A DNA stretch of 37,046 nucleotides from a virus. Position numbers and translations under genes: made by a program. Of the stretch, positions 10,260-33,116 are shown piece after piece. The stretch spans positions 1-37,046 of the IMG/VR virus record IMGVR_UViG_3300030397_000824, one strand, 5' to 3'. Under the pieces are notes generated by a model. That model was not told the origin of the DNA. It ran no database searches and saw nothing but the letters and a program-made list of their open reading frames with translations. Position 1 is the stretch's first letter. Each line of letters opens with the position of its first letter.

Positions 10260-10260
10260 T

Positions 10261-11218: not shown

Positions 11219-11228
11219 TACCTTCTCC

Positions 11229-14186: not shown

Positions 14187-14192
14187 TAAATA
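14187..14192 (+). promoter_or_regulatory. Late-promoter-like TAAATA
   Basis: CTTAAATACAG upstream of 14251. Confidence 0.55.
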
Positions 14193-14250: not shown

Positions 14251-16530
14251 ATGTCTCAACAGATGCTTTCTCAGACGGGTGCTGCTGCACCGGCTCCGGG
14301 TGGTACTGGTCCGATTGTCGCCTTTCCGGGTAGCAACGGAATTCGACTGATTCAGGTTAACCCTGCTGCGGGCACTCCGCTCACGGGTACTCTGGAAATT
14401 CGTGGTACCAACAAGCCCGCTCCGGGTGCTGGCGACTTCGCCGTCATCGCGACCATCGACTTTACCGGTCACACTGGTCCGTTTACTCTGTACGTTCAGA
14501 ACTCTTCTACCAGCATGCAGGTTGCTCTTACGGCTGTCTCTTCTGGTCAGGTTTCTGTTTTCGGTGACAGCAACGACGGTGCGCTCGTTGGTGGTTCCGG
14601 TACTTCTCTTTCACAAGCAACTGCGGTTGTTACAGCACAAAGCACTGTAACCGTTGTTGGTCAGTTCGTTCACGTAGCTGCTGCTACCGTTCCGTCTATC
14701 ACTTCTGATGACGTTGTTTACGCACTCGACTTCAATAGCACTGTTACTGATGAGCTTGCCAAGCATGACGCAATCCTCGAAGGCATCACCCTCGCTGGTG
14801 TTACCGTTGCGGACCTCAATCTGCTTGCTGGTAAAGACGCATACGGTCTGACAAGTGCCGATCTCTGCAAGCTGGCAGACATCGACGCATCGGCTTCCGA
14901 AATCAATTTCCTGACTGGTGTAACCAGTGGTGTTCAAGCACAAATTGATGGCAAAGCTGACGGCGCTGGTATTGACCTGACTGGTCTTACCGTTTCAGCC
15001 ACAGACTTCAACACGTTCTTTGACGTTGCACCTACAGTTGCTCTGTCGTTCCTGAACACTGCTTTCACTGGTCTGGTTGCTACTGCTGCCGATCTGAACG
15101 CTCTGGCTGGTACGGCTGGTGACGTTGCTGCTGCTGACTTTGTCAAGCTTGGTGACATCACTGCTTCTGCATCCGAAATCAACACGCTGAACGGTCTGCT
15201 TGCTGCTGCTACTGAACTGAACATTCTTGCTGGCACATCTGCTGACGCAAGTGACATCAATGCTATCGCCGGTATCGGTGGTCTGGGCATCGACATCACT
15301 GAACTTCAGCACCTTGTCGGTCTGACTGAAAACGTTCAAACTGCACTCGACACCATCACTCCTTTGGGTGGTCTGACCTCTTCGGTTGACGACCTGAACC
15401 TACTGACTGGTGCGTTCGCTGGTACTGGTGCTTTCTCTGGTGGTGCTATCACTTCCGCAGAAATCGCTCACCTGAACGGTGTTTCTTCCGGTATTCAGGC
15501 TCAATTGGATTCCAAGCGTAACACTGCCGACACAATCGGTATCGCTGAAATCACTGGTGCGTCTATCACGACCACCGAACTGAACTACCTGTCTGGTTCA
15601 ACTGCTAACATCCAAGCTCAGATTGATGCTCTTGGTGCTGGTGCTATCACCGCTGCTGGTGGTACGTTCACTGGTCCGATCTTCATCTTCGACGGAACCG
15701 CTGCTGCTCCGGGTCTTGGTTACGCGTCTTCTAACGATTCTGGTTTCTACCTCTTTGGTGCAACCGGCATTGGTATGACCGTAGCTGGCACTCGTGCTGG
15801 TACGCTGGATGGCACCAACTTGATCATCGGTGATAACCTCACCTCTGGTCAGCCGTTGGCTAAGCACTCTGGCATGGGCGAGTCCGATCCGACTTGGGCG
15901 TTTGTTGGCGACGAAGACACTGGTATGTACCGTGTCGGTCCTGACTCTGTTGGTATCGCTGCTGGTGGTACTGAGATGGCTCGTTTCGACGACACTGCTG
16001 GTGAAGTTGTTCTTGGTGGTGCTTCCGCTGGTAACCACGACGTTCGTGTCACTGGTATCTTCCAAGGTATCAAGGAACTGGGTCGTGTATCGGTTTCTGC
16101 TGGTGCTACCTCGGCTGCTGCTCCGAAGACCTCTCCGATCTACACCGTGCCTGCGGGTCGTACCGCAATCGTCACTCAGATTCTCGTTCGCCTGACGGCA
16201 GCGGTTGTCGGTGGCGGTGGTTACGTGACTGGTCCTCCGGGTAACAACACCCTTGAGTTGAACATTGGTTTCACCGCAGCAACCTACGATGAAATCGTGG
16301 ACAACACCACGAACACCGGTATCTGGAACCCGGGTACATACGACTTCGATACCGCGATGCAGGTAATGCCTTTGGGCGCTGGTGACAACACCTTCCCTGC
16401 TATCTCTGGTAGCGCTGGTGCAGACTATCAAGCCCTCTCGGCTGGTGCTGTTTTGACCGCGTATGTCGGTACTCTGGCGAACCTTGATACGTTCGACCTC
16501 GACATCATCGTTTTCGGTTACGAACTGTAA
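14251..16530 (+). CDS. Fibre/whisker-like virion protein, probably high copy
   Basis: Repeated [AT]..(E/D)(L/I)N.L.G and GV.S.IQAQ(I/L)D motifs; DGTAAAPGLGY and P..AF.GD.DTGMY fibre motifs; beta-rich termini; strongly biased codon use. Confidence 0.75.
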   Translation: MSQQMLSQTGAAAPAPGGTGPIVAFPGSNGIRLIQVNPAAGTPLTGTLEIRGTNKPAPGAGDFAVIATIDFTGHTGPFTLYVQNSSTSMQVALTAVSSGQVSVFGDSNDGALVGGSGTSLSQATAVVTAQSTVTVVGQFVHVAAATVPSITSDDVVYALDFNSTVTDELAKHDAILEGITLAGVTVADLNLLAGKDAYGLTSADLCKLADIDASASEINFLTGVTSGVQAQIDGKADGAGIDLTGLTVSATDFNTFFDVAPTVALSFLNTAFTGLVATAADLNALAGTAGDVAAADFVKLGDITASASEINTLNGLLAAATELNILAGTSADASDINAIAGIGGLGIDITELQHLVGLTENVQTALDTITPLGGLTSSVDDLNLLTGAFAGTGAFSGGAITSAEIAHLNGVSSGIQAQLDSKRNTADTIGIAEITGASITTTELNYLSGSTANIQAQIDALGAGAITAAGGTFTGPIFIFDGTAAAPGLGYASSNDSGFYLFGATGIGMTVAGTRAGTLDGTNLIIGDNLTSGQPLAKHSGMGESDPTWAFVGDEDTGMYRVGPDSVGIAAGGTEMARFDDTAGEVVLGGASAGNHDVRVTGIFQGIKELGRVSVSAGATSAAAPKTSPIYTVPAGRTAIVTQILVRLTAAVVGGGGYVTGPPGNNTLELNIGFTAATYDEIVDNTTNTGIWNPGTYDFDTAMQVMPLGAGDNTFPAISGSAGADYQALSAGAVLTAYVGTLANLDTFDLDIIVFGYEL

Positions 16531-16555
16531 TCAATAGCGGGTGTCATGCTCCAAC

Positions 16556-16587
16556 AAAAAAGGGAGGCCATTATGGTCTCCCTTTTT
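16556..16587 (+). terminator. Rho-independent terminator (possibly bidirectional)
   Basis: AAAAA-AGGGAGGCCA-TTA-TGGTCTCCCT-TTTT directly after the 14251 gene. Confidence 0.85.
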
Positions 16588-16596
16588 GCTTTTAAG

Positions 16597-16602
16597 TAAA
16601 TA
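16597..16602 (+). promoter_or_regulatory. Late-promoter-like TAAATA
   Basis: AGTAAATAATAC between the terminator and 16638. Confidence 0.65.
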
Positions 16603-16637
16603 ATACAGAACAACAAATAACTGCGGAATAACCACCC

Positions 16638-18926
16638 ATGTCACAACAGCAATATTGGCAATTTGAAATTTTCGGCACCGACCCGGACATCATTGGCTTC
16701 TTCGGTGATGCCGGTATTATCCTCCCGGGCGGTACAACCGCTGAACGTCCATCGTCACCCTCTGTAGGACATATTCGTTACAACACCGACCTCGGACAAT
16801 TTGAGGGATTCAACGGTGGTTGGCTTACTTTCGAAACTGGTGCTGCTACCACGTTCGACGCGCTGACTGATACCCCTGCTGGTAAAGCCGGTAGTGCCAA
16901 TCGTGTGATGATTGTTAACTCCGGTGAAACTGCGCTTGAATATTCTTCGGCTCTGACACTGGAAAACGACGGCACGCTTCTTGTCGGAACAGCTTCATAT
17001 GAAACACTCGTTGTTACTGATGACGTAGTTCCAAACAAGCGCTATGTTGATGACCAAGACGCTCTTCAATTGTCATTGTCTGGCGGCTTGATGACCGGCA
17101 CCATTACGATGGGTGGTAATGCGATTTCTGGTCTTCCTCTTACTCCGACTGCTGCAAGCGAAGCGGCTTCGAAAAGTTATGTTGATGGACTGTTTGCTGG
17201 TATTGATCGCAAAGAGTCTGTTCGCCTTGCTACAACCACTGACCTGAACAGCGAAACTGGTGATTCATGGGTACCCGCAGGCTCCGGTGTTGGCAAGACG
17301 ATTACTTCTGATGCAAACACTGCCACCATTGATGGTGTCGCTGTTGTAAACGGTGACCGTATTCTTATCAAGGACGAAGCCGGTGATATTGACAATGGTA
17401 TCTACGACGTGTCTGGCGTTGGTGGTGCTGCTGTTGTTCTTACCCGTTCAACTGACATGGATGGTACTCCTTCGAACGAAGTGAGTGGTGGTACCACGAC
17501 CTTCGTCGTTGAAGGTACAACTAATGCTGCGACACAATGGTCTGTCATTCATGATGGAAGCCTGACTGTAGACACCGATCCAATGGTGTGGACCGTAACC
17601 ACTATTCTTTCCGGAACATTTCTGGAACTGGCTGGTGGTACCATGGTTGGTAACATCACATTCGGTGCTGCTAGCACTCAAATTCTCGGAGACACCACGA
17701 CTACCACAGTTCCCTCATACTCCTTTGTTGGTGATACTGGAACTGGTCTCCACCAAACTTCCGGAGCAGGAACCCTCGCTCTCGTAATCGGTGCAACTTC
17801 CTCGTGGAACTACACTGCAACGGCGCTTACTCCTGCTGTTACCGAAACTCAAGATATTGGTTCGGCTGGCCTGAAGATGCGCGATGTCTACGCAGATCAC
17901 TTTCTGCCTAACTTCGGTGCTGCTGGCGATCCGAGCTACAGCTTCGAAGGCGACTCTGACACCGGTATGTTCAATGGTGGCGGAGATGATTTGGAATTCG
18001 CAATCGGCGGAACTATCGTTGCTTCTTTCACCACATCAGAACTCGACCTTACTGCTCCTGATGGGACTGGTGCTGGTGCCGGTGGCGTTATTGATATCAA
18101 CGCCGGTACTGGTGGCGCAACTGGTGATGGTGGTACCGTGGCAATTACCGCTGGTTCTGGTGGTGGTACTTCCGGTGACGGTGCTGATATTACACTAACC
18201 GGTGGTGGTGCAACTGACGGTAGTGGCGGTAACATCGACTTACTCGCCGGATCAGGTGCAGGAACGAACCAAGCCGGTGGTGGAGTTACCGTTTACGGTG
18301 GTGACAGTACTGGCTCTGCCGATGGTGGACCGGTCGCACTTTCTGGTGGTACTGGCGGAACAACTGCTGCTGGTGGTTACATCAACATTACTGCTGGTGA
18401 TGGTGGTGCTACCTCTGGTGACGGTGGATCGGTTACTATTACCGGTGGTGATGTAAGCAGCGCGTCCGGAGATAACGGTGGTTCAGTTACATTGGTTGCT
18501 GGACAAGGTTCTACCTCTGACGAGGATGGAACAATTGTATTCTCCACACAACGTTCGAGCGAGATTGAAGTTTTCTATGGTTACTCTGAGACAGGTGTAA
18601 CCGGCGCAGCAACCACCCTCATGACTATCCCTATCCCATCTGACGATAGTGCTATTTTCGAAGTCTTTGGAATTGCGCGGAGCGATAGTGCAACTGCTGG
18701 TTTCCGAATCTTTGGTGTTGTAGAGGAAGATGGTGGAGCTACGATTGCTGGTTCGACCGCAACTGATACATCAAACTCTGGAGGCGACTCGGCAGATTGG
18801 AACCTAACGGTTGATGTTAGTGGTTCTAACCTGATAGTTGTTACCGACAACGACGCTGAAGACGTTGATTGGAAACTCAAAGTCCGACTGACAAGTATCA
18901 ACCTTCCATTTGGTGGCGGATCATAA
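16638..18926 (+). CDS. Tail-fibre-like protein with Gly-rich repeats
   Basis: GTTAERP..P..GHIRYNTD, FDALTDTP, AASKSYVD, KESVRLATT...GDRILIKDE...NGIY fibre motifs, then GGxVxITAG repeats. Confidence 0.8.
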   Translation: MSQQQYWQFEIFGTDPDIIGFFGDAGIILPGGTTAERPSSPSVGHIRYNTDLGQFEGFNGGWLTFETGAATTFDALTDTPAGKAGSANRVMIVNSGETALEYSSALTLENDGTLLVGTASYETLVVTDDVVPNKRYVDDQDALQLSLSGGLMTGTITMGGNAISGLPLTPTAASEAASKSYVDGLFAGIDRKESVRLATTTDLNSETGDSWVPAGSGVGKTITSDANTATIDGVAVVNGDRILIKDEAGDIDNGIYDVSGVGGAAVVLTRSTDMDGTPSNEVSGGTTTFVVEGTTNAATQWSVIHDGSLTVDTDPMVWTVTTILSGTFLELAGGTMVGNITFGAASTQILGDTTTTTVPSYSFVGDTGTGLHQTSGAGTLALVIGATSSWNYTATALTPAVTETQDIGSAGLKMRDVYADHFLPNFGAAGDPSYSFEGDSDTGMFNGGGDDLEFAIGGTIVASFTTSELDLTAPDGTGAGAGGVIDINAGTGGATGDGGTVAITAGSGGGTSGDGADITLTGGGATDGSGGNIDLLAGSGAGTNQAGGGVTVYGGDSTGSADGGPVALSGGTGGTTAAGGYINITAGDGGATSGDGGSVTITGGDVSSASGDNGGSVTLVAGQGSTSDEDGTIVFSTQRSSEIEVFYGYSETGVTGAATTLMTIPIPSDDSAIFEVFGIARSDSATAGFRIFGVVEEDGGATIAGSTATDTSNSGGDSADWNLTVDVSGSNLIVVTDNDAEDVDWKLKVRLTSINLPFGGGS

Positions 18927-18945
18927 TAATTAAAGAGAACTAAAC

Positions 18946-21102
18946 ATGGCTGATATAAGAAAAAATCTAGGCGAAGATTCGATTACTCTTCCATCGACTT
19001 CGGCTCCATCTGATACCACCAACAAACTGTATAATGACGGTGGTACGATTACGTTTGACGGTGCAGCGTTGGGTAGCGGTAGTGGCGACGTAACTAAAGT
19101 TGGTACCCCAGTGGATAACCAAGTTGGTGTCTGGACTGGTGATGGAACTATTGAAGGTACGGCGGACTTCCAATGGGATACCGCAAGTGACACACTTACG
19201 ATTGGTGATGGTACGGTAGTTACTCCGGGAATCACGATGAATGGTTCTGCGACTGGTATACCCGTCATCCGATTCCAACAACTTGGTTCAAATCAAGTAA
19301 TCGTTCAATATGTTGATGGTTTCTCTGAATTTCGTATTAATACTACTGGTGCCGATGATATTTCATTTTGGACGAATGGTACTGAACAAGTTTATATTAG
19401 TGGTGCTGCCGCTAACGAAGGTAACCTGAATCTGGTTACTGGTGATCTTCAATTTTCAGAAAGATCGGACCATAATGTATCTGCTCCAGCCGCCAGCCAA
19501 GGTTACTTGTGGGTTCGCGATGATACCCCAAATGTTTTGGTATTCACTGACGACACTGGTACTGATACTGTTCTCGGGGCCGGTGGTGGCGGTGGTGGTG
19601 ATGAAATATCCGATGTTGATGGTGATACTCGAATTCGTGTTGAAGCTGCTGCTGACGAAGACATCATTCGATTCGATACGGGTGATTCCATTGCTGGATT
19701 TCCGGCACAAGCGAATACCGCAATTTTGTCATCCGCACAGTTTACTATTGGCCTCCCTGCTGCAACAGGTGCTACAACCGGTGGACCAGTTAGTTTAACT
19801 GGTGGTACTGGTGGACCAACTGGTGATGGTGGTAATGCTACACTTGCTGCTGGTTCCGGTGGTGCAACTTCCGGTAATGGTGGTGACGTATCAATAACAT
19901 CTGGTGCTGGCCCAACGTCTGGCACCGGTGGTGACATTTCTCTTACTGCTGGTGCTGGTAATTCTGGTGACGGAGGTGCGGTAAACATCACAGCCGGTGC
20001 TTCTAGTTATACTGGTGGTGATTCATTCGGTGGTGCTATTTCTCTCGTAGCAGGAAACTCTGCTGCGGGCGCTGATAATGCATACGGTGGTGCTATTAAC
20101 CTTACTGGTGGTAGTGCAACTGGTACTTCCGGCGATGGTGGTACGATTGCTCTTACCGCTGGTGCTGGTGGTTATTCCCCGGGTCAGGTTACCATTACTG
20201 GTGGTGCTGTTGGAACCGGACAGGGTGATGCAGGAGATGTTGTCATAACTGGTGGTACTGGTGATGGTAACAACTATTACGGTGGTGATATAACCATTAC
20301 TGGTGGTGCTAATGATTATGCTGCGGCAACTGCTTATGGTGGTAGCGTTAATATCTATAGTGGTGGCGCGGGGACTGGCTATGCTGGTAGCGTTTACATT
20401 GTCGGTGGCGTCGGTGGTGATACCAGTGGTAGTGTTTACATCACGGGTGGTAGCGGTTCCGGTGGTGGTGTTCCGGGCTCTGTGAATCTAACTGGTGGTG
20501 GTAGTAGTGGTAGTGCGAACGATGCTGGAGACGTTATCATCAATGGTGGTATAGCTACTGGTGCAAACCGTGGTGGTGATGCGTCCATTAACGGTGGTGA
20601 CGGTGGACCAACCGGTGGACAAGGTGGTTCGGCAACAATGATCGCTGGTGATGGCGGTTCTACTTCCGGAGATGGACAAGGTGGTCTTGTTCAATTGCGT
20701 GCTGGTGATGGTGGTCCTACCAACGGTGCTGGTGGTGATATTACTCTTACTCCGGGTGCTGGTTCTGGAACCGGTACCGATGGCGCGGTAATTATTTCAC
20801 AATCTAGTGCTGCACCAACGACTCCGGCCAACAAATTCTATAACCTAACTGGTGATATCTACTGGGGTGGAAATCTTTTATCCACCATCCATTCAGAATC
20901 TTTCGTTAATGGTGATCTGGCTGGCGGGGTTCTAACCGTTACCCATAGCTTGGGTCGTCAGTACGTTCATGTGAGCGTCTATGATAATAATAACGAATTG
21001 ATCCAGCCAGATACAGTAACGGCGACTTCCACATCCGCAACGGCGATTGATCTAACTTCCTTTGGTACGCTGACGGGCACTTGGAATGTTGTAATTTCGT
21101 AA
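18946..21102 (+). CDS. Gly-rich modular fibre protein
   Basis: Shared modules (KLYN.GG, GDVTKVGTPV, ERSDH/LWVR.DTPN, DGDT.I.VE.AADED), about 20 Gly-rich repeats, C-terminal THSLG..V.VSVYD domain. Confidence 0.8.
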   Translation: MADIRKNLGEDSITLPSTSAPSDTTNKLYNDGGTITFDGAALGSGSGDVTKVGTPVDNQVGVWTGDGTIEGTADFQWDTASDTLTIGDGTVVTPGITMNGSATGIPVIRFQQLGSNQVIVQYVDGFSEFRINTTGADDISFWTNGTEQVYISGAAANEGNLNLVTGDLQFSERSDHNVSAPAASQGYLWVRDDTPNVLVFTDDTGTDTVLGAGGGGGGDEISDVDGDTRIRVEAAADEDIIRFDTGDSIAGFPAQANTAILSSAQFTIGLPAATGATTGGPVSLTGGTGGPTGDGGNATLAAGSGGATSGNGGDVSITSGAGPTSGTGGDISLTAGAGNSGDGGAVNITAGASSYTGGDSFGGAISLVAGNSAAGADNAYGGAINLTGGSATGTSGDGGTIALTAGAGGYSPGQVTITGGAVGTGQGDAGDVVITGGTGDGNNYYGGDITITGGANDYAAATAYGGSVNIYSGGAGTGYAGSVYIVGGVGGDTSGSVYITGGSGSGGGVPGSVNLTGGGSSGSANDAGDVIINGGIATGANRGGDASINGGDGGPTGGQGGSATMIAGDGGSTSGDGQGGLVQLRAGDGGPTNGAGGDITLTPGAGSGTGTDGAVIISQSSAAPTTPANKFYNLTGDIYWGGNLLSTIHSESFVNGDLAGGVLTVTHSLGRQYVHVSVYDNNNELIQPDTVTATSTSATAIDLTSFGTLTGTWNVVIS

Positions 21103-21114
21103 GAGAAAAATAAT

Positions 21115-21312: not shown

Positions 21313-21332
21313 AATAACAAGGCAAAAGAATT

Positions 21333-23489
21333 ATGGCAAAGCGTACAGGTGATATTGAATTAATTGGTGCCGTGACCGCGCCTGATGGTGCAGCGGCAAC
21401 TAATGTTGGTGAAGATATTTCTTTCACCGCTGGTACTGGTAATACTACCGGTGCCGGTGGCGCTATCACGATCACTGGAGGTGTTGGTGGAAACGCGGCT
21501 GACGGTGGTGATATCACAATTACTGGTGGTGGTGCAAACGCTAACGGTGGTGAGCCCCCAATTTTTGGTGGTGACATTAATATCACTGGTGGTGCAAATG
21601 TTTATGCCGGTGAATATGCTTATGGTGGTGCAGTAAACATTACCGGTGGTAACGGTGGCGGAACCGGTGGTGATGTCAACATTACCGGTGGTATTTCTAC
21701 TAGTACATACGATTCCGGTTCCGTTCGTATTACTGGTGGTGAAGGTGGTAACTTTTCCGGTGAAGTAGAAATACGCGGTGGTGATGGTGCTGCGAGTCGA
21801 GAGCCGGGGGGCATTCAAATATACAGTGGTCGAACTGGTATTGGTGGTTCTTTTGACGCTGGTACTGTAGGGATTTATGGTGGTGTGGGTTACGAGGGGT
21901 ATGCCGGTGGTAATGTCAGTATTTTAGGCGGTTCTGGTAATGGAGCCGGTGGTGCTGGTGACGGTGGCTACGCTCGAATTGCCGGGGGTAATAGTGGAAC
22001 AACCGCCGACGGTGGTCAAGTTCAAATTACAGGTGGTAATGGCGGTGCAACATCAGGTGATGCTGGCGACATTGTTATAACACCGGGTACCGCAGCGGGC
22101 TCTGGCTCTGATGGTGCTATTGTAATTTCTCAAACTGCTGCTCCCACTGTAACGACAGACAAACTTTATAACGTTGGTGGTACTCTTACTTGGAACGGTA
22201 CCGACATTTCGACTGCTGGTGGTGATGTCACCAAAGTTGGTACACCTGTCAATAATGAACTTGCTGTTTGGACAGGCGACGGGACTCTCGAAGGTGAGTC
22301 AGAACTTACATTTGTTGGTGGTGCGTTAACTGTCGGCATAACGGCTGGTGGTGAATTACGTTCTGGTACCGGTCAAATTCTATCTATCACCCCGGGATCA
22401 GGTGGTGTTGGAATGAACATCAATGGTTCCTTCAACGCAGCCGGAACAGGTGGTCTTACAACTGTTTCTGGTGGTACCTCTGGAAACGCAGATGGTGGTA
22501 ACCTTGTCCTGCAAGGTGGTGCTCCTGCTGCTTCCGGTGATGGCGGTGATGTGACCATCAACGGTCGTGATGGTGGTGCTACTTCTGGTGATGGTGGTAG
22601 TGTCTTAATCACTTCCGGTACTGGTTCTGATCAGGGCGATGGTGGTAATATCACTCTGACCCCGGGTTCCGGTGCTGGTGCTGGTACCGATGGTATCGTA
22701 AATTTTGTCGGCCAAACAAGCGCATTGGATGTTTCCGGTGATATTACCCTTAACGATTCTGGTTTTGGTGGAGTTATTTCTAACCCGACTGATCGCATAT
22801 TTAATTTCCAATCTGGTGATGCCGCAGAATCGGCAATGCGTTTTCAAAGTAGTGGTGCTGTAACATTCGGTCACATCTACGGAAACGCTTCAGACTTTGG
22901 TATCTACGATGATTCTCTTGTTGCAGCGGTTACTGTCTCTAGCAGTGGTAGTGTCACTATCCGTGACAGCGGTACTGGTCGAATTGCAACAGACGGTCAA
23001 GGAATCAACGTTACCGGTGAAATGGATATTACCAGTCATGTTAATTTAGGTGCGCTATCTGACCTCGTTTTCACTGAAAAAGCTGATCATACGTCAACTC
23101 CTACAGCGGGGTTTGGTTACCTATGGACCCGTAATGATTCTCCCAACACTCTGATATTCACAGACGATGCTGGAACAGATCATGACCTAACTGCTGCTGG
23201 TGGTGGAAACAATCTCTCAGTAACAACAGTAACGGGAACATCATTCACGGCGGCTGCATGGGATGCAGTAATGGTCGATGATGACACCGCAGGGTCCACG
23301 GTAACTATTACGCTTCCGGCTGGTTCTACTGACGATCAAATCGTTGTCAAGAAGTTGGGTACAACTGCTAACGTAATTGTTGATGGAGATGCTTCTGAAA
23401 CGATTGACGGTGCTACTACTTTTACTCTTACTGCACAATACGCTTCCGTATCTTTGATTTGGAACGGATCAGAATGGAGCATAATCTAA
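21333..23489 (+). CDS. Gly-rich modular fibre protein with a C-terminal adaptor-like domain
   Basis: N-terminus MAKRTGDIELIG; shared modules; C-terminus TITLPA...IVVKK...ETIDG...SVSLIWNGSEWSII. Confidence 0.8.
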   Translation: MAKRTGDIELIGAVTAPDGAAATNVGEDISFTAGTGNTTGAGGAITITGGVGGNAADGGDITITGGGANANGGEPPIFGGDINITGGANVYAGEYAYGGAVNITGGNGGGTGGDVNITGGISTSTYDSGSVRITGGEGGNFSGEVEIRGGDGAASREPGGIQIYSGRTGIGGSFDAGTVGIYGGVGYEGYAGGNVSILGGSGNGAGGAGDGGYARIAGGNSGTTADGGQVQITGGNGGATSGDAGDIVITPGTAAGSGSDGAIVISQTAAPTVTTDKLYNVGGTLTWNGTDISTAGGDVTKVGTPVNNELAVWTGDGTLEGESELTFVGGALTVGITAGGELRSGTGQILSITPGSGGVGMNINGSFNAAGTGGLTTVSGGTSGNADGGNLVLQGGAPAASGDGGDVTINGRDGGATSGDGGSVLITSGTGSDQGDGGNITLTPGSGAGAGTDGIVNFVGQTSALDVSGDITLNDSGFGGVISNPTDRIFNFQSGDAAESAMRFQSSGAVTFGHIYGNASDFGIYDDSLVAAVTVSSSGSVTIRDSGTGRIATDGQGINVTGEMDITSHVNLGALSDLVFTEKADHTSTPTAGFGYLWTRNDSPNTLIFTDDAGTDHDLTAAGGGNNLSVTTVTGTSFTAAAWDAVMVDDDTAGSTVTITLPAGSTDDQIVVKKLGTTANVIVDGDASETIDGATTFTLTAQYASVSLIWNGSEWSII

Positions 23490-23936: not shown

Positions 23937-23962
23937 ATTAACATCATAGGTGTGGAAAACAA

Positions 23963-26005
23963 GTGGCCAAACGAACCGGTGGAATTGAATTAGTTGGTGG
24001 AATTATCTCTGCATCAGGTGCAGCTATTGGTGATCCCGGCGACAATATTAATATCACTGCGGGAGCGGGCAACGCGACATCAGGTGATGGTGGTTCCGTA
24101 AATCTAACAGCGGGTGCTGCTGTCGGTGCCGCTTCAAACCATGATGGTGGTGATGTTGTTCTTACCCCGGGTGCCGGAGTTGGTTCCGGTTCCGTTGGTG
24201 GTGTTGTTATAACGCCCGTTGGAACACCTACAGACACAACCAATAAACTCTATAATGATGGCGGTGCCCTTACGTGGAACGGGACTGATATTTCCACAGG
24301 CGGAAGCGGTGATGTCACAAAGGTCGGAACCCCAGTAGATAACCAAGTTGGTATCTGGACCGGTGACGGTACACTCGAAGGCGATGCCATTTTCACACTG
24401 AACAATTCCGCACCAACCGCAACGCTCACGTTTGGTGATGGTTCGACCATCGTAAGCCCAAATATCACCATGAATGGTACTGCCGCTGGCAGTCCTATTA
24501 TCAATTTTCAGCAGGGTGGTGTACAGCGCGGTTCTGTTGGGTTCTTTGATAATATCGGTGGCTCGGCGGATACTGTCAGAATCACTTCTCAGTCTGGTCC
24601 CGTTCAACTTGCGCCCACCAACTCGTTAACACTTACCGCAACCAACGGTGAGGGTATTGAACTGTTTGATGGCGGGATAGTATTCAACGAGCGTGCTGAT
24701 CATGCTACTACCCCCGTTGCGGCCAAGGGTGAATTGTGGGTTCGCAACGACACTCCTAATACTCTCGTGTACACGGATGACACGGGTACCGACTTTGACC
24801 TTCTAGCGGCTGGTGGTGATGTAACCAAAGTCGGTACTCCAGTTGATAATCAAATTGGTGTGTGGACCGGTGATGGAACCATTGAGGGGGATACTAATTT
24901 CCAATGGAACGGTAGCGTTCTATCCATTGGCGCAAGCGGGTGGCAACTAAGTGGGTTAAACACCACTACTTTCACATTCACTGGAGGAGCCGCTGGAACT
25001 GTTCAATTATTGATTGAGAATTCTGCCAATACTGATCTTGGTTCGATAATCGCACGGACTACCGGTTCTGGACAAATTGGTTTCACTGATGCCGGTGGTG
25101 GTAATACGTACATCGCAGAAAATGATGGTGACCATATTTGGTCTACAGATGGTGCTACCGAGATAATGCGGCTTAATAGAATTGCCGCTGGTGATGGTGT
25201 CCTTGAGTTAACTGGTAGTTTGGCTATCGACGAGCGCTCCGACCATGCCTTGACACCGACAGCCGGAATCGGTGAAATTTGGGTCCGTAATGATTCTCCG
25301 AATTCTCTGATGTTCACAGATGATGCTGGTACAGATTTTGTATTGAATAGTACTTCGGCAGGCGGTTCAGATACCCAACTACAATACAATAACGGTGGAG
25401 TTCTGGGAGGAATAGCTGGTACAGTATGGGACGATATTAACGGTGATCTTCGTTTCAACTCAACATTCACCGGACCATTCTTTTTCATCAACGGTAACAC
25501 AGTTAACGGTTCTGATTTCGTAGCCAACATTGGATCGAACAACAATTCACTGAGTGGCGAAATTCTGGGAATTGATTACTCGGGCACAAACAGCGCGGAC
25601 ACGCTGCGTATTAATAATACTGGTACCGGTAGAAACCTTGTTGTTCAGGATAATGGTTCCACGGTCATGTCCATTGCGGCGACTGGATACATCGATGATT
25701 ATCCCGGTTCTCCTGCCGATGGTGAGGTTCTTACGTGGAACACTTCAAATGGTAGAGCCGAATTTACTGCCGCCAGTGGTGCTTCGAAGTTTGCTCAAGA
25801 CAACACCACAACCGCAACATCAGAAGTATTCAACCATGCTTTGGGTTCCCTTGATGTCATCGTTCAGGTTTTTGATTTAACAGTATCTCCCCGTGAACAA
25901 TTTGTACCAACCACAGTGGAAATAACTGACGCCAATAATGTAACGATTACGGTTCCGACTGCGCCGGGTGCTGCTGGTGAATATCGTGTCGTTGTGATGG
26001 CGTAA
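23963..26005 (+). CDS. Modular fibre protein
   Basis: GTG start; MAKRTGGIELVG N-terminus; two GDVTKVGTPV and two ER.DH modules; GSDTQLQYNNGG; C-terminal NHALG..DV.VQVFD domain. Confidence 0.8.
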   Translation: MAKRTGGIELVGGIISASGAAIGDPGDNINITAGAGNATSGDGGSVNLTAGAAVGAASNHDGGDVVLTPGAGVGSGSVGGVVITPVGTPTDTTNKLYNDGGALTWNGTDISTGGSGDVTKVGTPVDNQVGIWTGDGTLEGDAIFTLNNSAPTATLTFGDGSTIVSPNITMNGTAAGSPIINFQQGGVQRGSVGFFDNIGGSADTVRITSQSGPVQLAPTNSLTLTATNGEGIELFDGGIVFNERADHATTPVAAKGELWVRNDTPNTLVYTDDTGTDFDLLAAGGDVTKVGTPVDNQIGVWTGDGTIEGDTNFQWNGSVLSIGASGWQLSGLNTTTFTFTGGAAGTVQLLIENSANTDLGSIIARTTGSGQIGFTDAGGGNTYIAENDGDHIWSTDGATEIMRLNRIAAGDGVLELTGSLAIDERSDHALTPTAGIGEIWVRNDSPNSLMFTDDAGTDFVLNSTSAGGSDTQLQYNNGGVLGGIAGTVWDDINGDLRFNSTFTGPFFFINGNTVNGSDFVANIGSNNNSLSGEILGIDYSGTNSADTLRINNTGTGRNLVVQDNGSTVMSIAATGYIDDYPGSPADGEVLTWNTSNGRAEFTAASGASKFAQDNTTTATSEVFNHALGSLDVIVQVFDLTVSPREQFVPTTVEITDANNVTITVPTAPGAAGEYRVVVMA

Positions 26006-26008
26006 ATA
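26003..26008 (+). promoter_or_regulatory. Late-promoter-like TAAATA overlapping a stop codon
   Basis: GCGTAAATATAAG about 25 nt upstream of 26033. Confidence 0.45.
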
Positions 26009-26032
26009 TAAGAATAATTTGAGGCAAGAATA

Positions 26033-28276
26033 ATGAGATTTGGTGAAGTCGAACTGCTAGGAAATATCATCTCCGCAGATGGTGCTGCTGCTGGTGACCC
26101 GGGTGACAATATTACTATAACCGCTGGTTCTGGTAATGCTACGTCCGGTGATGGTGGTTCGGTTAATATTTCCGCTGGTGTTGGTGTTGACGCAGGCGAC
26201 GGTGGTAACATCAACCTTACCCCGGGTGCAGGCGCAGGAGCGGGTTCAGCCGGTGCTATCATCATAGCTCAAACTGCTGCTCCTACCGTAACAACCGACA
26301 AACTATATAACGACGGCGGTGCCCTTACATGGAACGGAATAGACATATCCGCTGCTGCTGGTGACGTTACTAAAGTTGGAACCCCAGTTGATAATCAGGT
26401 CGGTGTTTGGACTGGTGATGGAACGATTGAGGGCGATGCCAATTTTGTTTGGACCGGAACCACACTTGATGTTAATGCAACCATCACACTCGGAACACAG
26501 AATTGGATAATTGGTGGTAACGGTACATCGCGGCTCACAATAAATTCGAATGATGTTGTTTCTTCGGGTATTACGTTTAACGATAGTGCTGGTGGAACAG
26601 TTGGCCATGTCTATGGTGATGATGACATTTACCTTGCAGCGGCAAACAACGACATAACTTTTCGTGGTCGTCAAAATGGTGCTGCTATCATGTACCACGA
26701 TGATGTTGAGAAGTGGCATACAACCAATAATGGTGCAGCCCTAGATAGCGGACAACGCATTAACTTCGATGGGTCCGTTGGTACTGGTGATACATACATA
26801 ATTTCCGACGCTACTGATGTATTGAATCTCTACGCTGGTGGCTCCGCTCTTGATTGGGACGGTACTACCGTCGGTGGTACACTGGGTGAACTTCGGTTTA
26901 CCGAACGCGCAGATCACGCATCGATTGTTACAGCCGGAGAAGGTTACTTGTGGGTTCGGAATGATACTCCTAGTAGCTTGATATTCACCGATGATGCTGG
27001 TACTGATGTTGATCTAACAGCGATCAACGCGGCTGGAATATCAGGAACCCCGGTAAACAATCAAGTCGCCGTATGGGTAAATGATTCTGATATCGAAGGC
27101 GCTTCTGGTTTAACCTACGATGGAAATGAGCTTTTTATCTCTAGTTCATCAGCAGAAGTATTGGCTATCAATGATACCGGTGGAGCTACCGCAGCCGCCA
27201 CCGACACCCGAATGACATTCCAAGGTAATGGAGCAGTTCGTGCCAGACTGCGATACTCGGGTGGAGATTTCCGCATGGAAAATCTCGAAGGACCAATCGA
27301 CCTAAGTCCTGCACTCAGTAGTGGTGATGAAATCATCGATATTCTTCGGGGTGGACTACAGTTTCTTGAGCGGGCAGATCATCCAGTAACCGCAATTCCG
27401 GCACGTGGCCAGTTGTGGCTTCGTAATGATACACCAAACGTTTTGGTCTTTACCGATGATGCCGGAACAGATCACGATTTGACTGGTGGCGGAACTCCTA
27501 TTAGCATATCGGATGCCGACGGTGATACCCAAATTCAGGTTGAAGAAGCTGCTGATGAAGATACCATTCGATTCGATACCGGTGACAACGTAACTGGTTT
27601 CCCTGCTCAAGCGAATGCTTTGATTGTATCGTCTGGTCAATTCACTCTTGCCCTACCCGCTGCAAACGTTGCAGCAACCGCTGGCGGTGATGTATCCCTG
27701 ACAGCCGGTGTTGGTAACACAACTGGTACCGGTGGTGATGTATCTCTAACAGCCGGTGCGGGTGGTGCGACTGCTGCGGGTGGTGCGGTTTCCGTAACTG
27801 CTGGTGATGCTGGCGCAACCTCGGGTGATGGTGGTTCCATCACAATTACCGGTGGTGACGCAAGTGGTTCCGGTGATGGTGGTAGTATCAACCTTGTTCC
27901 GGGAACCGGTGCAGGTACGATTGGTATTGATGGTAAGACCAACGTTACCAACCTCGAAGCTCCAATGCCACTCAATAACCAGACTGGAACAACGTATGGT
28001 CCGGTTTTGGATGACGCTGATAAAATGATTACGCTGAACAATGCTTCGGCGGTCACGGTAACAATACCAGCCAACTCGTCTGTTGCCTTTCCGATTGGAA
28101 CCAAATTGAACTTTATGCAATTGGGTGCCGGTCAGGTGACTATTGCAATTACGACAGACACGCTGAATATTCCATCTGCGTTAACAGCAAACCTTACTGA
28201 GCAATATGCGACGGCAACTGCGTTGAAAGTAACAAGCACATCTTGGGTACTATTTGGTAACCTAGAGGCAGCGTAA
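26033..28276 (+). CDS. Modular fibre protein with a C-terminal adaptor-like domain
   Basis: MRFGEVELLGNIISADGAA N-terminus; shared modules; C-terminus NNQTGTTY...VTVTIPANSSVAFPIGT...QLGAGQVTI...WVLFGNL. Confidence 0.8.
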   Translation: MRFGEVELLGNIISADGAAAGDPGDNITITAGSGNATSGDGGSVNISAGVGVDAGDGGNINLTPGAGAGAGSAGAIIIAQTAAPTVTTDKLYNDGGALTWNGIDISAAAGDVTKVGTPVDNQVGVWTGDGTIEGDANFVWTGTTLDVNATITLGTQNWIIGGNGTSRLTINSNDVVSSGITFNDSAGGTVGHVYGDDDIYLAAANNDITFRGRQNGAAIMYHDDVEKWHTTNNGAALDSGQRINFDGSVGTGDTYIISDATDVLNLYAGGSALDWDGTTVGGTLGELRFTERADHASIVTAGEGYLWVRNDTPSSLIFTDDAGTDVDLTAINAAGISGTPVNNQVAVWVNDSDIEGASGLTYDGNELFISSSSAEVLAINDTGGATAAATDTRMTFQGNGAVRARLRYSGGDFRMENLEGPIDLSPALSSGDEIIDILRGGLQFLERADHPVTAIPARGQLWLRNDTPNVLVFTDDAGTDHDLTGGGTPISISDADGDTQIQVEEAADEDTIRFDTGDNVTGFPAQANALIVSSGQFTLALPAANVAATAGGDVSLTAGVGNTTGTGGDVSLTAGAGGATAAGGAVSVTAGDAGATSGDGGSITITGGDASGSGDGGSINLVPGTGAGTIGIDGKTNVTNLEAPMPLNNQTGTTYGPVLDDADKMITLNNASAVTVTIPANSSVAFPIGTKLNFMQLGAGQVTIAITTDTLNIPSALTANLTEQYATATALKVTSTSWVLFGNLEAA

Positions 28277-31068
28277 TGTTAATCCTTGGTAGCATTAGCG
28301 TTCAGTCTACTATCACGGCAAGCGGTAACGATGTTGGCCGTGGTAGCTCCACGGCGCGTTCTAATTATCTAGGCACCTTGTCTATTGCCAAGACTTTCGA
28401 ATATTTGTTTGAAGGTGGTGATCCGGATTATCTTCTGGAAGAAGGTGGTGATACAACCAATGATTTGTTTGTTGGTGATTCTACTGTTCTGCCTACCTTT
28501 TCTCAGCCAGCGCTTTCGTTTGCATCTTCGGATTCTATAACGTGGCCAAATGACGATTCTTTTGCTCAATTAGAAGGTACTGGTAATTGGGGTACCGGAA
28601 ATTATATCTACGAACTATGGTACCAACAATCCGATTATACCGGTCATGGATTGGATGAAAATACCGATGATGGTTTCGTCCAAATGATCGGTGCGGCGAA
28701 CAATAGCACTCGATACTTGGGACGTTATTTTAATGGCATATCTGGCGGAAACGAAGTATCTTATTTTCCTGCCGGTGGAAGAACCGGGAATAGAAACTGG
28801 GAATCTTTTGTTGATACGTATGGGGACGATGTCCCACATCAATTGCTAGAAGTACACGAGTCCGCCAACCGAGATAACTATCTTGTGATACTGGATGGAA
28901 TTCCGATTGCAAGCGGAACAGACTCGGATGGGGTAATCCAAAGTTGGGATAATGCCAACGACATTGCATTCAATGGTAATGCAGCGCTGGCTGATGCTCA
29001 GCGTTCTGGTGCAACTATGGGATCATTCACACTATACGACAACGGTGAAAACGTCACCTTGCAAATGGCACGTGAGTTGTTTGAAGTTAGTGCATTAAAC
29101 AATCAGGATATGCTCACAGTTCCGAAGTGGGTTCCATTAGATGCAGAAAACGTCACGGTCGAACCGTATATGTTCAATGTGGTAACAATGGGTGATGTAT
29201 CAGGGGCAACTGGTGTACGCTCTGGCGCAATTCCTCGCGGCAATGGTGTTGGTAAAGTTTACTTTGAATTTGAAGTTATTGATCAAGGAGATAACACATC
29301 AGCAAGCCGTGTTGGTATTCGACGAATGATAACAATCGCTGATGTGGGTGATGTGACCGATGCGTCAGAAGATGGTCAAAAACACCATTTCTATATTGAT
29401 TCAAACAACATTGAGTATGATGACGAAATCGACACTGGGGTAGATGTTGATCCATTAACAATCGGAATGCGTACCGGTGTTACGATCATGGTAGCCATTG
29501 ATTGGAGTACGGGTGATTTTTGGTTTGGTCGTGATGGAACATGGGGAGATAATAGCGGTGATCCCGCAACCGGTGCCAATCCGGTAGACACAATTGATCG
29601 CAACACTAACTGGGCTGCGCATGTTTGGAATAATGGGACATCCGGTAATAGTGTTGTCCGTCTCAAGACCCACCTACATGAAATGTTGTATACACCACCG
29701 AGTGGGTTTACTGCATGGACTGGTAATATAACACCCGAGGTTGGTGGGCGTGGCCCAATTGCTCGCCGTGCCGCCATCGATAGTATGGGTTCCCAAATTG
29801 ATCGAGAATATAAGTGGGAGGGTACAACCACGACATATCTGTATGATTTCAATGAAACTAATAAGCGATATCCATTAATTGAAGGTAGTGGTATGGGTGA
29901 GCGCACTCTAGGTGGTGCGCAACTTAGTCATGCCTCGGTTGATTCCGTAAATTGGGGTAATTCCAGTAATGATCCATTTGTTAATAATACGGCTAATATT
30001 TCGTTTGATAATGCGGCACACACATGGGAACTGTGGTTTCGGCAACCAGATAATTCGCAAGACCTGTCGATTCTGATTGGTGCAACCAACAATACTAATA
30101 TTGTACTGGGTAAACCTACTGCGGCAATTAATATGCCAGCCGCACGTAACAATTTTAATGCAACATTGGCATGGGAATCAGAAATTGATGTCTATGGTGA
30201 TAATCAAGCACACCAACTTATGGAAGTCCATGATGGTGCAAACGGAACTGATTACTTTGTTACGCTTGACGGGATGCCGGTTGCTAGTGGATCAAATAGT
30301 GGGTTTTGGGGGATTCTTTCCGCTGGAGCGTACCGATTCAATAGCGATGGCGCTAGCGGCGATGGTTCCGATGCGTCGGGTGCAGACTTTGGTTCATTTA
30401 CCCAATATCGCGGGGGTCCAAGTTTGACATTGTTTGATTGTCGAAAATTATTCCGGGCTTCAGCGCTATCTGGACACCAAATGTTGACCTCCCCACAATG
30501 GTGTGCACTCGACTCTGTGAATTGTACATTTGGTGGAACAGGGAACAAAGATGTTACACTGGGCGATGTATCTAGCAACACTGGTGCTCGTTCCTACGCA
30601 ATACCAAGAAACGGAAAAGTATATTTTGAAATCGAAGTGCTAGCCCAAGGTGATAGTACATTTGGCCGGGTTGGTGTTCGTAAGCTTCTTGATCGCTTCA
30701 ATGTTGGTGATAATGCGGTAGAAAATGCGTCGGATATATTCTACCAAGTTAATACGAACTTTAACGATGGTGATGGTAGTATAGGAGCTACCGGACTTAG
30801 TAGCCAAACCACAGGACTTATCATGCAGTGTGCCATCGATTGGGATACCGGAAATCTTTGGTGGGGTAATGATGATACATGGGCATCAAGCGGCGAGCCC
30901 GATACCGATACAAACCCACTTGTGGTTATAGATGATGAAGAAGATTGGGCCGTTTGGGTTGGTGTGAACGGCGCTGTTGGTAACCAGCAATATCGATTGG
31001 TCACCGCAGCCGGAGATTTGAACCATACACTTCCAACCGGATACTCTGCATGGGAAGATGCAGACTAA
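28276..31068 (+). CDS. Putative adhesin / receptor-binding protein with two tandem [ConA/LamG-like + SPRY-like] units
   Basis: Internal duplication: ELW(Y/F).Q...IGA.NN...D.YGD...HQL.EVH...LDG.P.ASG and GKVYFE.EV..QGD...RVG.R...AIDW.TG..W.G....W...P.G..AW, each twice. TAATG coupling. Confidence 0.75.
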   Translation: MLILGSISVQSTITASGNDVGRGSSTARSNYLGTLSIAKTFEYLFEGGDPDYLLEEGGDTTNDLFVGDSTVLPTFSQPALSFASSDSITWPNDDSFAQLEGTGNWGTGNYIYELWYQQSDYTGHGLDENTDDGFVQMIGAANNSTRYLGRYFNGISGGNEVSYFPAGGRTGNRNWESFVDTYGDDVPHQLLEVHESANRDNYLVILDGIPIASGTDSDGVIQSWDNANDIAFNGNAALADAQRSGATMGSFTLYDNGENVTLQMARELFEVSALNNQDMLTVPKWVPLDAENVTVEPYMFNVVTMGDVSGATGVRSGAIPRGNGVGKVYFEFEVIDQGDNTSASRVGIRRMITIADVGDVTDASEDGQKHHFYIDSNNIEYDDEIDTGVDVDPLTIGMRTGVTIMVAIDWSTGDFWFGRDGTWGDNSGDPATGANPVDTIDRNTNWAAHVWNNGTSGNSVVRLKTHLHEMLYTPPSGFTAWTGNITPEVGGRGPIARRAAIDSMGSQIDREYKWEGTTTTYLYDFNETNKRYPLIEGSGMGERTLGGAQLSHASVDSVNWGNSSNDPFVNNTANISFDNAAHTWELWFRQPDNSQDLSILIGATNNTNIVLGKPTAAINMPAARNNFNATLAWESEIDVYGDNQAHQLMEVHDGANGTDYFVTLDGMPVASGSNSGFWGILSAGAYRFNSDGASGDGSDASGADFGSFTQYRGGPSLTLFDCRKLFRASALSGHQMLTSPQWCALDSVNCTFGGTGNKDVTLGDVSSNTGARSYAIPRNGKVYFEIEVLAQGDSTFGRVGVRKLLDRFNVGDNAVENASDIFYQVNTNFNDGDGSIGATGLSSQTTGLIMQCAIDWDTGNLWWGNDDTWASSGEPDTDTNPLVVIDDEEDWAVWVGVNGAVGNQQYRLVTAAGDLNHTLPTGYSAWEDAD

Positions 31069-31124
31069 TGGATCGATAGCTTAATCAACTTGTATTCTAA
31101 TAATAGTGGTATTATATTTTCTTC

Positions 31125-32420: not shown

Positions 32421-32436
32421 CAATCCACTTTATCGG

Positions 32437-32442
32437 TAAATA
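32437..32442 (+). promoter_or_regulatory. Late-promoter-like TAAATA
   Basis: TCGGTAAATATAGTTA upstream of 32466. Confidence 0.65.
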
Positions 32443-32465
32443 TAGTTAGTGATTAGGAACTAACT

Positions 32466-33116
32466 ATGTCAAAAGACGATTTCTGGAAAACCGTTTCCCT
32501 AGACCCTACCGGGGTCGTGGCTGGAACGTATAACATTCCACAACTTACTATTTCAGAAGACGGTCGTATCACCAGTGCATCCGGTGGTTCGGTGTCTACT
32601 GTTTCCACTGTATCCACAATTGCCGACCTTCCATCAGTCGTGGCACCATCCAATGGTGACTTGGCGGCGGTAATGGATGATGGGTCAGGAAACGAGCAAC
32701 TGTATATCTGGAATGATGCCAATTCCGACCTTGGGAATCCATTGCTTCGTTGGCGTTTGGTTGGTTCTACCGAGACTTCGGTAACTCGTAAGGACTATCG
32801 TCAAAGTATTATCGACATCACCGCCGTGCAGGACATCGATTCAGTAATTCCTGATACCGGAATCATCAAACGCGTTACCGTGGAAATCACCACACCGTAT
32901 TCGGGCGGTGCTACGATGGAAATACAGGATGCCGGTTCATTTGTTTATATGCCATTTTCGTCCATAAATCCTCAATTAGCAGGAACATACATCGAAGATT
33001 TATCAGGTAATGTGAACACCATTGCAACAAATGGGTCCGGACAAATCCGGGCAATTGTCGGTGGTGCTCCGGGTGTTGGAGATGGCGTAGTTTACGTCGA
33101 ATGGATTAACGGTTAA
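32466..33116 (+). CDS. Virion structural protein with a tail-fibre repeat
   Basis: TGVVAGTY....TISEDGRITSAS matches the GV.AGTY..VTVD..GR.T fibre repeat; beta-sandwich-like C-terminus. Confidence 0.65.
   Translation: MSKDDFWKTVSLDPTGVVAGTYNIPQLTISEDGRITSASGGSVSTVSTVSTIADLPSVVAPSNGDLAAVMDDGSGNEQLYIWNDANSDLGNPLLRWRLVGSTETSVTRKDYRQSIIDITAVQDIDSVIPDTGIIKRVTVEITTPYSGGATMEIQDAGSFVYMPFSSINPQLAGTYIEDLSGNVNTIATNGSGQIRAIVGGAPGVGDGVVYVEWING

Follow-up and report, generated by a model that had tools for sequence, protein, structure and literature searches.

What kind of structure is encoded when half a dozen fibre-like genes of nearly equal size stand together in one phage locus, and to which part of the virion would their products belong? 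The question is raised by ten open reading frames (ORFs), all in the same orientation and labelled g1 to g10, at positions 14251-33116 of IMG/VR virus record IMGVR_UViG_3300030397_000824, of which positions 1 to 37,046 were analysed (hereafter the window). An initial annotation made from the DNA letters had pointed to six genes of 680-762 amino acids (aa) in this interval, and the ORF list agrees (759, 762, 718, 718, 680 and 747 aa). For a phage that is known here from sequence alone, we conclude with moderate confidence that this is a hypervariable receptor-binding fibre locus whose products would form a tail-mounted set. Coordinates of all features are collected in Table 1.

The variability of the locus is seen on comparison with related contigs, which (L081, L082, L083 and others) were found through a search of a protein collection. 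The first gene, g1, is a member of a family that comprises more than 70 clusters (744-769 aa, 43-87% identity, on contigs of up to 411 kb) and occupies the same place, 3' of a block of sheath, gp15 and gp13 genes, in every relative examined. What comes after it differs from contig to contig: genes of 1078 and 1268 aa in L081, a single gene of 2696 aa in L082, genes of 900, 63, 1511 and 1052 aa in a third relative contig, and genes of 356, 2266 and 673 aa in L083. In G001, a genome of 360 kb (91% complete) with a capsid protein 94% identical to that of the phage studied here, g1 is followed by exactly one fibre gene, of 1310 aa, then by a 74-aa gene, a g10 homologue and the backbone genes of the window. 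A gene of the size of g10 (219 aa) stands at the same place in a relative; between g10 and the 189-aa gene that follows the fibre gene in L082, BLAST showed no significant similarity. The g10 protein has no Pfam or cultured-phage match and a marginal one in PHROG (phrog_5181, E 0.0095). By these gene orders, g1 and g10 are the fixed flanks that bracket a stretch of hypervariable DNA.

The same comparison suggests where the array came from. The 1310-aa fibre of G001 resembles g2 over its N-terminal 442 aa (52%) and the end of g6 over its C-terminal 70 aa (73%). Likewise, the 2696-aa fibre of L082 has a g2-like start (62% over 591 aa) and a g6-like end (62%), a pattern that in L081 is spread over two genes. 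Overall, the last 70-92 aa of g6 are 62-73% identical to the C-terminal ends of fibres in these three relatives. Because their fibres start like g2 and end like g6, the array appears to have expanded from a single ancestral fibre gene. On these alignments g2 retains the ancestral N-terminal part, presumably the one used for attachment, and g6 retains the ancestral tip, while g3, g4, g5, g7, g8 and g9 are lineage-specific additions. As a separate observation on g2, a motif at its residues 29-65 (window 16638-16850) recurs in 213 phage records, mostly of T4-like cyanophages; nearly all of the matches listed are named 'hypothetical protein', and one occurs in a tail fibre of a Methylophilales phage. 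This motif may mark a common attachment element.

Within the array, g3, g4, g6 and g7 are evidently paralogous (E 1e-105 for g6 with g7), g2 has Gly-rich blocks in common with them, and g1 gives weak alignments with the other proteins of the locus (E 1e-9 at best, 21-26% identity). These four genes had been described as mosaics of the same modules in different order and number. The motif counts were reproduced by regular expressions and by eye: five copies of KLYN, five of GDVTKVG plus a degenerate one near residue 333 of g7, six of ERxDH..FTDDxGTD, and two of DGDT..EDxIRFDTGD, found in g3 and g7. The different order was not reproduced, as hidden Markov models derived from the window reveal one colinear, cyclic order in all four proteins: Gly-rich block, KLYN, GDVT, a variable insert, ERDH (with GDVT..ERDH sometimes repeated), DGDT, then Gly-rich block and KLYN again. 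What varies between the proteins is the phase at which the cycle begins and ends and how often its modules occur. A single unit has GDVT at one end and ERDH at the other, and it spans 85-560 aa among 55 units taken from homologues; since the spans cluster at about 90 aa and about 160-220 aa, the middle of the unit can be regarded as an optional inserted domain. The Gly-rich blocks have a period of 48-51 nucleotides (nt). A proposal that the shared N-terminus of g4, g6 and g7 serves as a 'plug' was dropped, as this stretch was not found within at least 400 related fibre proteins and reads as the first turn of the Gly-rich repeat.

Copies of a module are 61-79% identical in DNA, with no long identical stretches, and yet their peptide motifs are kept. 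Recent duplication and ongoing recombination were considered and are ruled out by this degree of divergence. The paralogues are therefore old and have been kept by selection, and they are not substrates for ongoing homologous recombination.

The GDVT-ERDH unit occurs in thousands of protein clusters. A profile of it matched 7,081 cluster representatives at E<=1e-3, 3,911 at 1e-10 and 444 at 1e-30; the proteins range from 420 to 3810 aa and contain as many as 13 stretches. The unit has no match in Pfam and none by sequence in the PDB, and the ten best unit-bearing proteins that were looked up are metagenome proteins on phage-sized contigs with no informative names. Searches of cultured phages by tblastn with g6, the DGDT module and g10 found no match, so at that sensitivity the shaft modules are absent from cultured phages. 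The nine best loci retrieved with g7 (L009-L017) have only fibre modules in common with the window, never neighbouring genes, which argues that the modules move between phage lineages.

Two unit-bearing proteins in other settings were recorded on the way. On L092, an unrelated contig of 55 kb, a 3810-aa protein with eight fibre-unit stretches (L092:10001-21433) is encoded between the genes for the portal and the prohead protease, and a block of genes for glycosyltransferase, methyltransferase and radical-SAM proteins is found immediately upstream of it; this protein could be a head-associated or a glycosylated fibre. On a contig of 17.8 kb, a 1493-aa protein with five such stretches comes directly after a polyvalent protein of 2694 aa with an ART-PolyVal domain (the pair at L091:1468-14037).

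A model of three copies of g6 residues 88-320 (KLYN, one unit and the next GDVT), built on a custom alignment of 28 unit rows, agreed with the expectation of a trimeric shaft, scoring 0.84 against 0.00 for the best of three controls. Of 30 proteins solved as pairs of one chain, 20 attained this mark in calibration, against one of 23 solved as single chains; these counts are only a rough guide here, as the job used three copies and a custom alignment. Along its whole length the model holds about 890 contacts, at least 95% of which agree between runs, with a partner pLDDT (predicted local distance difference test) of at least 88; these figures express how confident the prediction is and do not measure a structure. 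Since no solved structure matches by sequence, a pass owed to remembered, similar sequences is unlikely. The shared-module proteins are taken to be fibres, each most likely an intertwined homotrimer.

That the fibres end in different tips was borne out by comparison of their C-terminal domains. Those of g4 and g7 form one class (class A; E 7e-6), those of g3 and g6 another (class B; E 1e-3), and g2 has its own. A translationally coupled gene follows the class-A genes only, and the coupling is as first described: the g4 stop codon is directly followed by the ATG of g5, which has a GGAG 10 nt upstream, and g7 and g8 overlap as TAATG. The g5 protein matches the C-terminal parts of phrog_17970 and of the tail-fibre family phrog_14879, and its counterpart in Vibrio phage K452 is the C-terminal ~116 aa of a 'tail protein' with 623 aa; g4 itself has a weak match to Phage_depo_C (22.5 bits against a cut-off of 25). 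We also observed that g4 and g5 are in frame, parted at 23487-23492 by one TAA with the ATG immediately after it. This junction could be an old gene split, or a site of occasional stop readthrough that yields a longer isoform.

The other class-A gene leads to a lectin-type protein. Residues 646-745 of g7 match phrog_21978, and this C-terminal domain recurs in 222 Gordonia phage records, named 'minor tail protein' or 'tail protein' among the matches listed. It also ends gp87 of phage PhiJL001 (37.6% identity, E 3e-7), where the next protein, gp88, contains three Laminin_G_3 stretches. The model of g8 consists of four concanavalin A (ConA)-like sandwiches (pLDDT 76.5), for which Foldseek returned neurexin LNS1-6 and RyR SPRY regions (probability 1.0, E 6e-11). 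Homologues of g8 carry Laminin_G_3 (PF13385) and F5_F8_type_C (PF00754) domains, and its own Pfam match, to SPRY, is weak (E 0.033, 14.7 bits against a cut-off of 26.3).

On four siphovirus contigs a g8 homologue (38-44% identity) closes the tail module, in the order tape measure, other genes, Phage_BR0599, Phage-tail_3, DUF2793 and g8 homologue. Its start overlaps the end of the gene for the DUF2793 protein, which has 226-227 aa and matches tail-fibre PHROG families; phrog_21978 is matched by both this protein and the g7 tip. Direct BLAST comparisons of the DUF2793 protein with g7 and of PhiJL001 gp88 with g8 were not significant, so the link between g8 and a fibre partner is drawn from families and gene order. 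The overlap on the four contigs shows the coupling of this separately encoded tip-type protein to a fibre end to be conserved, and fits the earlier description of g8 as a coupled tip gene. We infer that the class-A domain serves for docking, of g5 after g4 and of g8 after g7, and that g8 is a distal tip which probably binds glycans.

For g9, described at first as a fusion of a sulfotransferase with a Stealth-like part, the sulfotransferase half stands firmly (Sulfotransfer_4, PF17784, at residues 41-172; 90.8 bits against a threshold of 22.8), whereas the Stealth half stays below its threshold (Stealth_CR2, 30.4 bits against 39.4), and the Pfam scan returned no Stealth CR1, CR3 or CR4. A sulfotransferase recurs in the loci of relatives: in one of them, the same 431-aa fusion of Sulfotransfer_4 with a Stealth_CR2-like part has a g8-type cassette on one side and a g10-sized gene on the other, and the L081 locus ends in a sulfotransferase (Sulfotransfer_4, 114.7 bits). 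No match to g9 was found in G001, a genome estimated at 91% completeness. This accessory gene of the variable locus lacks both a TAAATA motif (see below) and a clear ribosome-binding site.

When the locus would be expressed is indicated by a short motif. TAAATA occurs at 27 sites on the contig, counting both strands, and 19 of them sit 21-96 nt 5' of the start of a gene on the same strand, against 0.98 expected (P 7.6e-22). The genes concerned include those for the capsid, the portal, a gp26-like protein, the baseplate and a 3385-aa virion protein, as well as g1, g2, g7 and g10; further examples lie at contig positions 42005, 47014, 51039 and 76581 and at window position 36484. The exact T4 late box, TATAAATA, has no match in the window. 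Scans for sigma-70 promoters and terminators stayed at background level, except for the hairpin 3' of g1. TAAATA behaves as the late-promoter core of this phage. Given its enrichment, and the hairpin with a T run that follows g1, the fibre locus is predicted to share the late timing of the structural genes.

The window is the first 37 kb of a viral record of 103,442 bp, for which CheckV estimates a completeness of 28%. Genes for the tail sheath and for gp15-like, gp14-like and gp13-like proteins lie 5' of the locus, and the sheath protein shares about 36% identity with its counterparts in Sinorhizobium phage Phosso and in Rak2-like jumbo phages. Farther along the contig there follow genes for the major capsid protein, the portal, a gp5-like hub lysozyme, a gp6-like wedge protein and the 3385-aa virion protein. 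On this gene content, the source is an uncultured T4-like jumbo myovirus. Megablast with positions 1-12000 and with the whole locus gave no match among 50,697 phage records, and the Phosso region around the sheath gene has no synteny with the window. Related loci were also sought through a flanking nucleotidyltransferase gene, which gave none, and through a VWA-like gene and g1, which gave one viral contig each. Sequence searches of the PDB with g1, g2, g7 and g8 returned nothing meaningful.

From these results we propose the following course of events. A single ancestral fibre gene would have given rise, by duplication and module exchange, to five fibre genes of about 700 aa (g2, g3, g4, g6 and g7) at a hot spot between g1 and g10, where relatives hold one to three very long fibre genes. 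Each fibre would be a homotrimer of cyclic modules (Gly-rich block, KLYN joint, one or more GDVT-ERDH units and DGDT joint) with a small beta-sandwich tip, and the class-A tips of g4 and g7 would dock the separately translated distal proteins g5 and g8. Transcribed late with the capsid and baseplate genes, the set would supply tail-mounted alternative or additional host-recognition fibres that may widen or hedge receptor use. The g9 product would be an accessory sulfotransferase and phosphosugar-transferase-like enzyme that travels with the g8 cassette and acts on a host surface glycan or on the virion. What the analysis itself shows is the anatomy of the genes, the late-promoter motif, the pattern of conservation, the trimer model, and the fold and gene coupling of g8; the presence of these products in the virion, their position on the tail, the docking of g5 and g8, the binding of glycans by g8 and the role of g9 are inferred.

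The placement on the tail draws on several annotations. Residues ~155-360 of g2 match tail-fibre domains (a 'tail fiber' of Melnitz, a 'tail protein' of RsoM1USA), the matches of the g7 tip and of g5 are annotated as tail proteins, the g8 homologues stand in a siphovirus tail context, and those BFVD matches of g1 that carry a name belong to fibre and tail proteins. The distance from the baseplate genes, which are not recognisable in the window, as the initial annotation had remarked, and which lie at about 64-90 kb of the same contig, 35-50 kb from the fibre locus, has a parallel in T4, where the long-tail-fibre genes 34-38 are also far from the baseplate genes. Several observations weigh on the other side. 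Pfam, PHROG and PDB scans of the locus proteins found no match to the T4 gp34-gp38 family, to a baseplate-attachment domain or to a solved fibre, so that the tail placement rests on annotations of distant domain matches and on analogy. Moreover, a further match of g2 is phrog_2647, which bears the name 'head decoration'; among solved structures, the best matches for the two end domains of g1 are capsid cement or decoration jellyrolls; the same units occur in the L092 protein encoded between portal and prohead protease genes; g4, g6 and g7 lack the conserved g2-type N-terminal part; and the docking of g8 on a fibre is read from gene order alone.

One alternative would make the proteins accessory 'hair' fibres on the head, neck or sheath: g1 would be the anchor on the capsid or neck, through a cement-like jellyroll, and the variable fibres would adorn the particle and not the baseplate, making a reversible first contact with host glycans. 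We consider this unlikely, but it is the alternative that fares best. Residues 601-759 of g1 superpose on the cement protein of KHP30 with Z 8.8 (root-mean-square deviation 3.7, 116 residues aligned) and residues 1-121 on BPP-1 with Z 7.4, and further end-domain matches are KHP40 (7.3) and Pam1 (7.0; Foldseek E 1.6e-4). Z values of about 7-9 are, however, within the range of unrelated beta-sandwiches, many of which score within 1-2 Z, and the named BFVD matches of the same protein point to fibres and tails. The 'head decoration' family covers residues 155-358 of g2, the very domain that also matches tail-annotated proteins, as do the g7 tip and g5; the L092 protein is encoded among head genes, and the g8 homologues stand at the distal end of siphovirus tail modules. 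The locus does adjoin the neck genes gp13-gp15, and in T4 the whisker gene wac sits beside the neck genes gp13-gp15. Its distance from the baseplate genes could also be taken for hairs, but the long-tail-fibre genes of T4 are equally remote from theirs. Hairy Rak2-like and other jumbo phages certainly exist (PMC5259590, PMC13282480). The initial annotation had gone as far as a combinatorial fibre coat, with the head and sheath hairs of some jumbo phages in view; a coat of this kind is unsupported, as nothing places the proteins on the head or sheath and the annotated matches in cultured phages are mostly named as tail proteins.

The proteins might instead build one compound fibre, joined end to end or branched in the manner of gp34-35-36-37 and derived by fission of a giant gene, with g2 proximal, g6 distal and g3, g4 and g7 inserted or branching. 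The L082 protein and the two L081 genes, which start like g2 and end like g6, would agree with such an origin, as would the starts and ends of the genes at different phases of one cyclic module series and the way in which g4, g6 and g7 begin straight in a Gly-rich turn with no separate N-terminal domain. But g2, g3, g4, g6 and g7 each end in a compact tip-type beta-sandwich and not in an open shaft, their summed length of 3625 aa exceeds the fibre of any relative, and Pfam and PHROG scans detected no joint proteins of the gp35/gp36 kind. The N-terminal motif of g4, g6 and g7 did not turn up inside the long fibres examined and is thus not an obvious fission point. A compound fibre is accordingly rated as distinctly unlikely.

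A bolder idea, which we regard as quite improbable, is that the locus encodes an undescribed multi-fibre organelle: paralogous trimers, possibly mounted through g1 on the neck, head or sheath, with tips made exchangeable by a class-A domain into which g5 or g8 plugs, and a dedicated sulfotransferase/phosphosugar-transferase that modifies the fibres or the host glycan to which they bind. If it were true, the GDVT-ERDH unit would be a new and very widespread structural family of viral fibre shafts. That the genes are decaying remnants of a giant fibre gene broken by stop codons, most pieces being non-functional, is highly improbable: the single in-frame TAA between g4 and g5, and the likeness of g5 to the C-terminal end of longer tail proteins, could suggest it, but none of the ten long ORFs is interrupted, each has a start codon and most have a ribosome-binding site, and four late-promoter motifs are present. 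The divergence of the module copies, with their peptide motifs kept, also speaks for long-term selection, and one relative retains the right-hand part of the array (fibre, g8, g9, g10).

Table 1. Genes and sequence elements of the fibre locus (window coordinates)
Feature	Position	Strand	Description
TAAATA late-promoter-like motif	14187..14192	+	64 nt 5' of g1
g1, 759-aa conserved fibre protein	14251..16530	+	Fold model: N-terminal beta-sandwich, helical repeat shaft, beta region, C-terminal jellyroll
Terminator-like hairpin, strong	16557..16587	+	3' of g1; 14-pair stem and T run
TAAATA late-promoter-like motif	16597..16602	+	41 nt 5' of g2
g2, 762-aa fibre	16638..18926	+	Clade-conserved N-terminal ~460-600 aa (presumed attachment part), Gly-rich block, own C-terminal domain
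g3, 718-aa fibre	18946..21102	+	KLYN, GDVT-ERDH unit, DGDT, long Gly-rich block, KLYN, small class-B beta-sandwich tip
g4, 718-aa fibre	21333..23489	+	Gly-rich block, KLYN, GDVT, Gly-rich insert, ERDH, class-A tip domain
g5, 148-aa tip-like protein	23490..23936	+	Matches C-terminal parts of longer tail proteins
g6, 680-aa fibre	23963..26005	+	Short Gly-rich block, KLYN, two GDVT-ERDH units, class-B C-terminal tip (presumed ancestral)
TAAATA late-promoter-like motif	26003..26008	+	30 nt 5' of g7
g7, 747-aa fibre	26033..28276	+	Gly-rich block, KLYN, two GDVT-ERDH units, DGDT, Gly-rich block, class-A tip
g8, 930-aa ConA-like lectin-type protein	28276..31068	+	Internal duplication, 2x(LamG-like + SPRY-like)
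g9, 431 aa	31125..32420	+	Sulfotransfer_4 domain fused to phrog_7999 domain resembling Stealth CR2
TAAATA late-promoter-like motif	32437..32442	+	29 nt 5' of g10
g10, 216-aa conserved protein closing the locus	32466..33116	+	G001 homologue 53% identical over full length

Among known systems, T4 genes 34-38 form a late cluster for trimeric fibres, with a conserved proximal part, a variable receptor-binding distal part and small accessory genes at the end. The present locus resembles it as a fibre cluster with late motifs that lies apart from the baseplate genes, with the conserved proximal part first, the variable distal part last and small end genes. It differs in having no match to the gp34-gp38 families at E<=0.01, no fixed number of genes (from one to at least six among close relatives), another vocabulary of modules and no recognised hinge proteins. 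Several receptor-binding genes in tandem are also found in the sets of Klebsiella phages RaK2 and phiKp24 and in the CBA120 and G7C-type sets, and the sheath protein resembles those of Rak2-like phages at the 36% identity given above. Those of the RaK2/phiKp24 type are thought to widen the host range (PMC13282480). The RaK2, phiKp24 and CBA120 sets consist mostly of beta-helix depolymerases with dedicated N-terminal docking domains, whereas this locus is made of repeat-module shafts: Pfam and PHROG scans of g1-g10 found no beta-helix, pectate-lyase or gp10-like family, the only trace being the sub-cut-off Phage_depo_C match of g4, and the common N-terminus of g4, g6 and g7 is a mere Gly-rich turn, unlike the docking domains of the depolymerase sets.

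The pairing of a g7-type C-terminal domain with a following multi-ConA-like protein recalls the distal pair of PhiJL001 and of siphoviruses that resemble gene transfer agents, with the difference that in the present phage, a myovirus, the pair has been joined to a modular fibre of 747 aa. Hairy jumbo phages (CBB with sheath whiskers, Y3, and PTm1 with capsid fibres) belong to a related broad group and have many fibre genes (PMC5259590, PMC13282480), but nothing in this locus places its products on a sheath or head; and as the genes for the CBB whiskers are not known (PMC5259590, PMC13282480), the locus cannot be compared with them. The mosaic adhesive trimer (MAT) fibres of Bdellovibrio are similar in idea only, insofar as they are described as combining shared shaft modules with diverse tips (PMC10769870). 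As far as that description goes, MAT fibres are cellular, whereas the present locus is viral (PMC10769870).

The fibre loci of phages decide host range, and in uncultured marine jumbo phages they are essentially unannotated. Modular hypervariable fibre loci and multi-fibre phages as such are well known. What is new here is a set of units that have no Pfam or PDB entry and yet occur in thousands of clusters, the fixed landmarks g1 and g10 in one clade of uncultured jumbo phages, an array of at least seven genes whose growth from a single one is documented, and the recurrent cassette of class-A tip and lectin. Since g1 and g10 bracket the variable locus across the clade, metagenomes could be used directly to follow how host range evolves, with one fibre gene or with many. 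Together with its KLYN and DGDT joints, the GDVT-ERDH unit, modelled as a trimer with high confidence, is a good target for structure determination and for an annotation profile. Common to myoviruses and siphoviruses, the class-A domain with its ConA-like lectin would be a portable host-recognition cassette. Current ideas are not overturned by these findings; we contend that they widen the known picture of modular fibre evolution in phages by a new group and a new module vocabulary.

Some features outside the fibre array deserve mention. Adjoining the gp13-like neck gene is a conserved gene of 257 aa (9486-10259) with a VWA-like domain scoring 23.1 bits against a Pfam threshold of 23.8; it holds the same place in relatives, with 71% identity in L077. 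Between the sheath gene and the neck genes, an HNH endonuclease gene (2443-3531) lies on the opposite strand, and several related HNH copies lie in the structural region of G001. The thymidylate-synthase homologue of that genome (G001:C1:152832-155990) has 1052 aa, against 392 aa in this phage, and contains a typical intein C-terminal block (..VHNS), so that it probably carries an intein. The SbcC-like gene of G001 is likewise longer, by about 350 aa, than its counterpart here.

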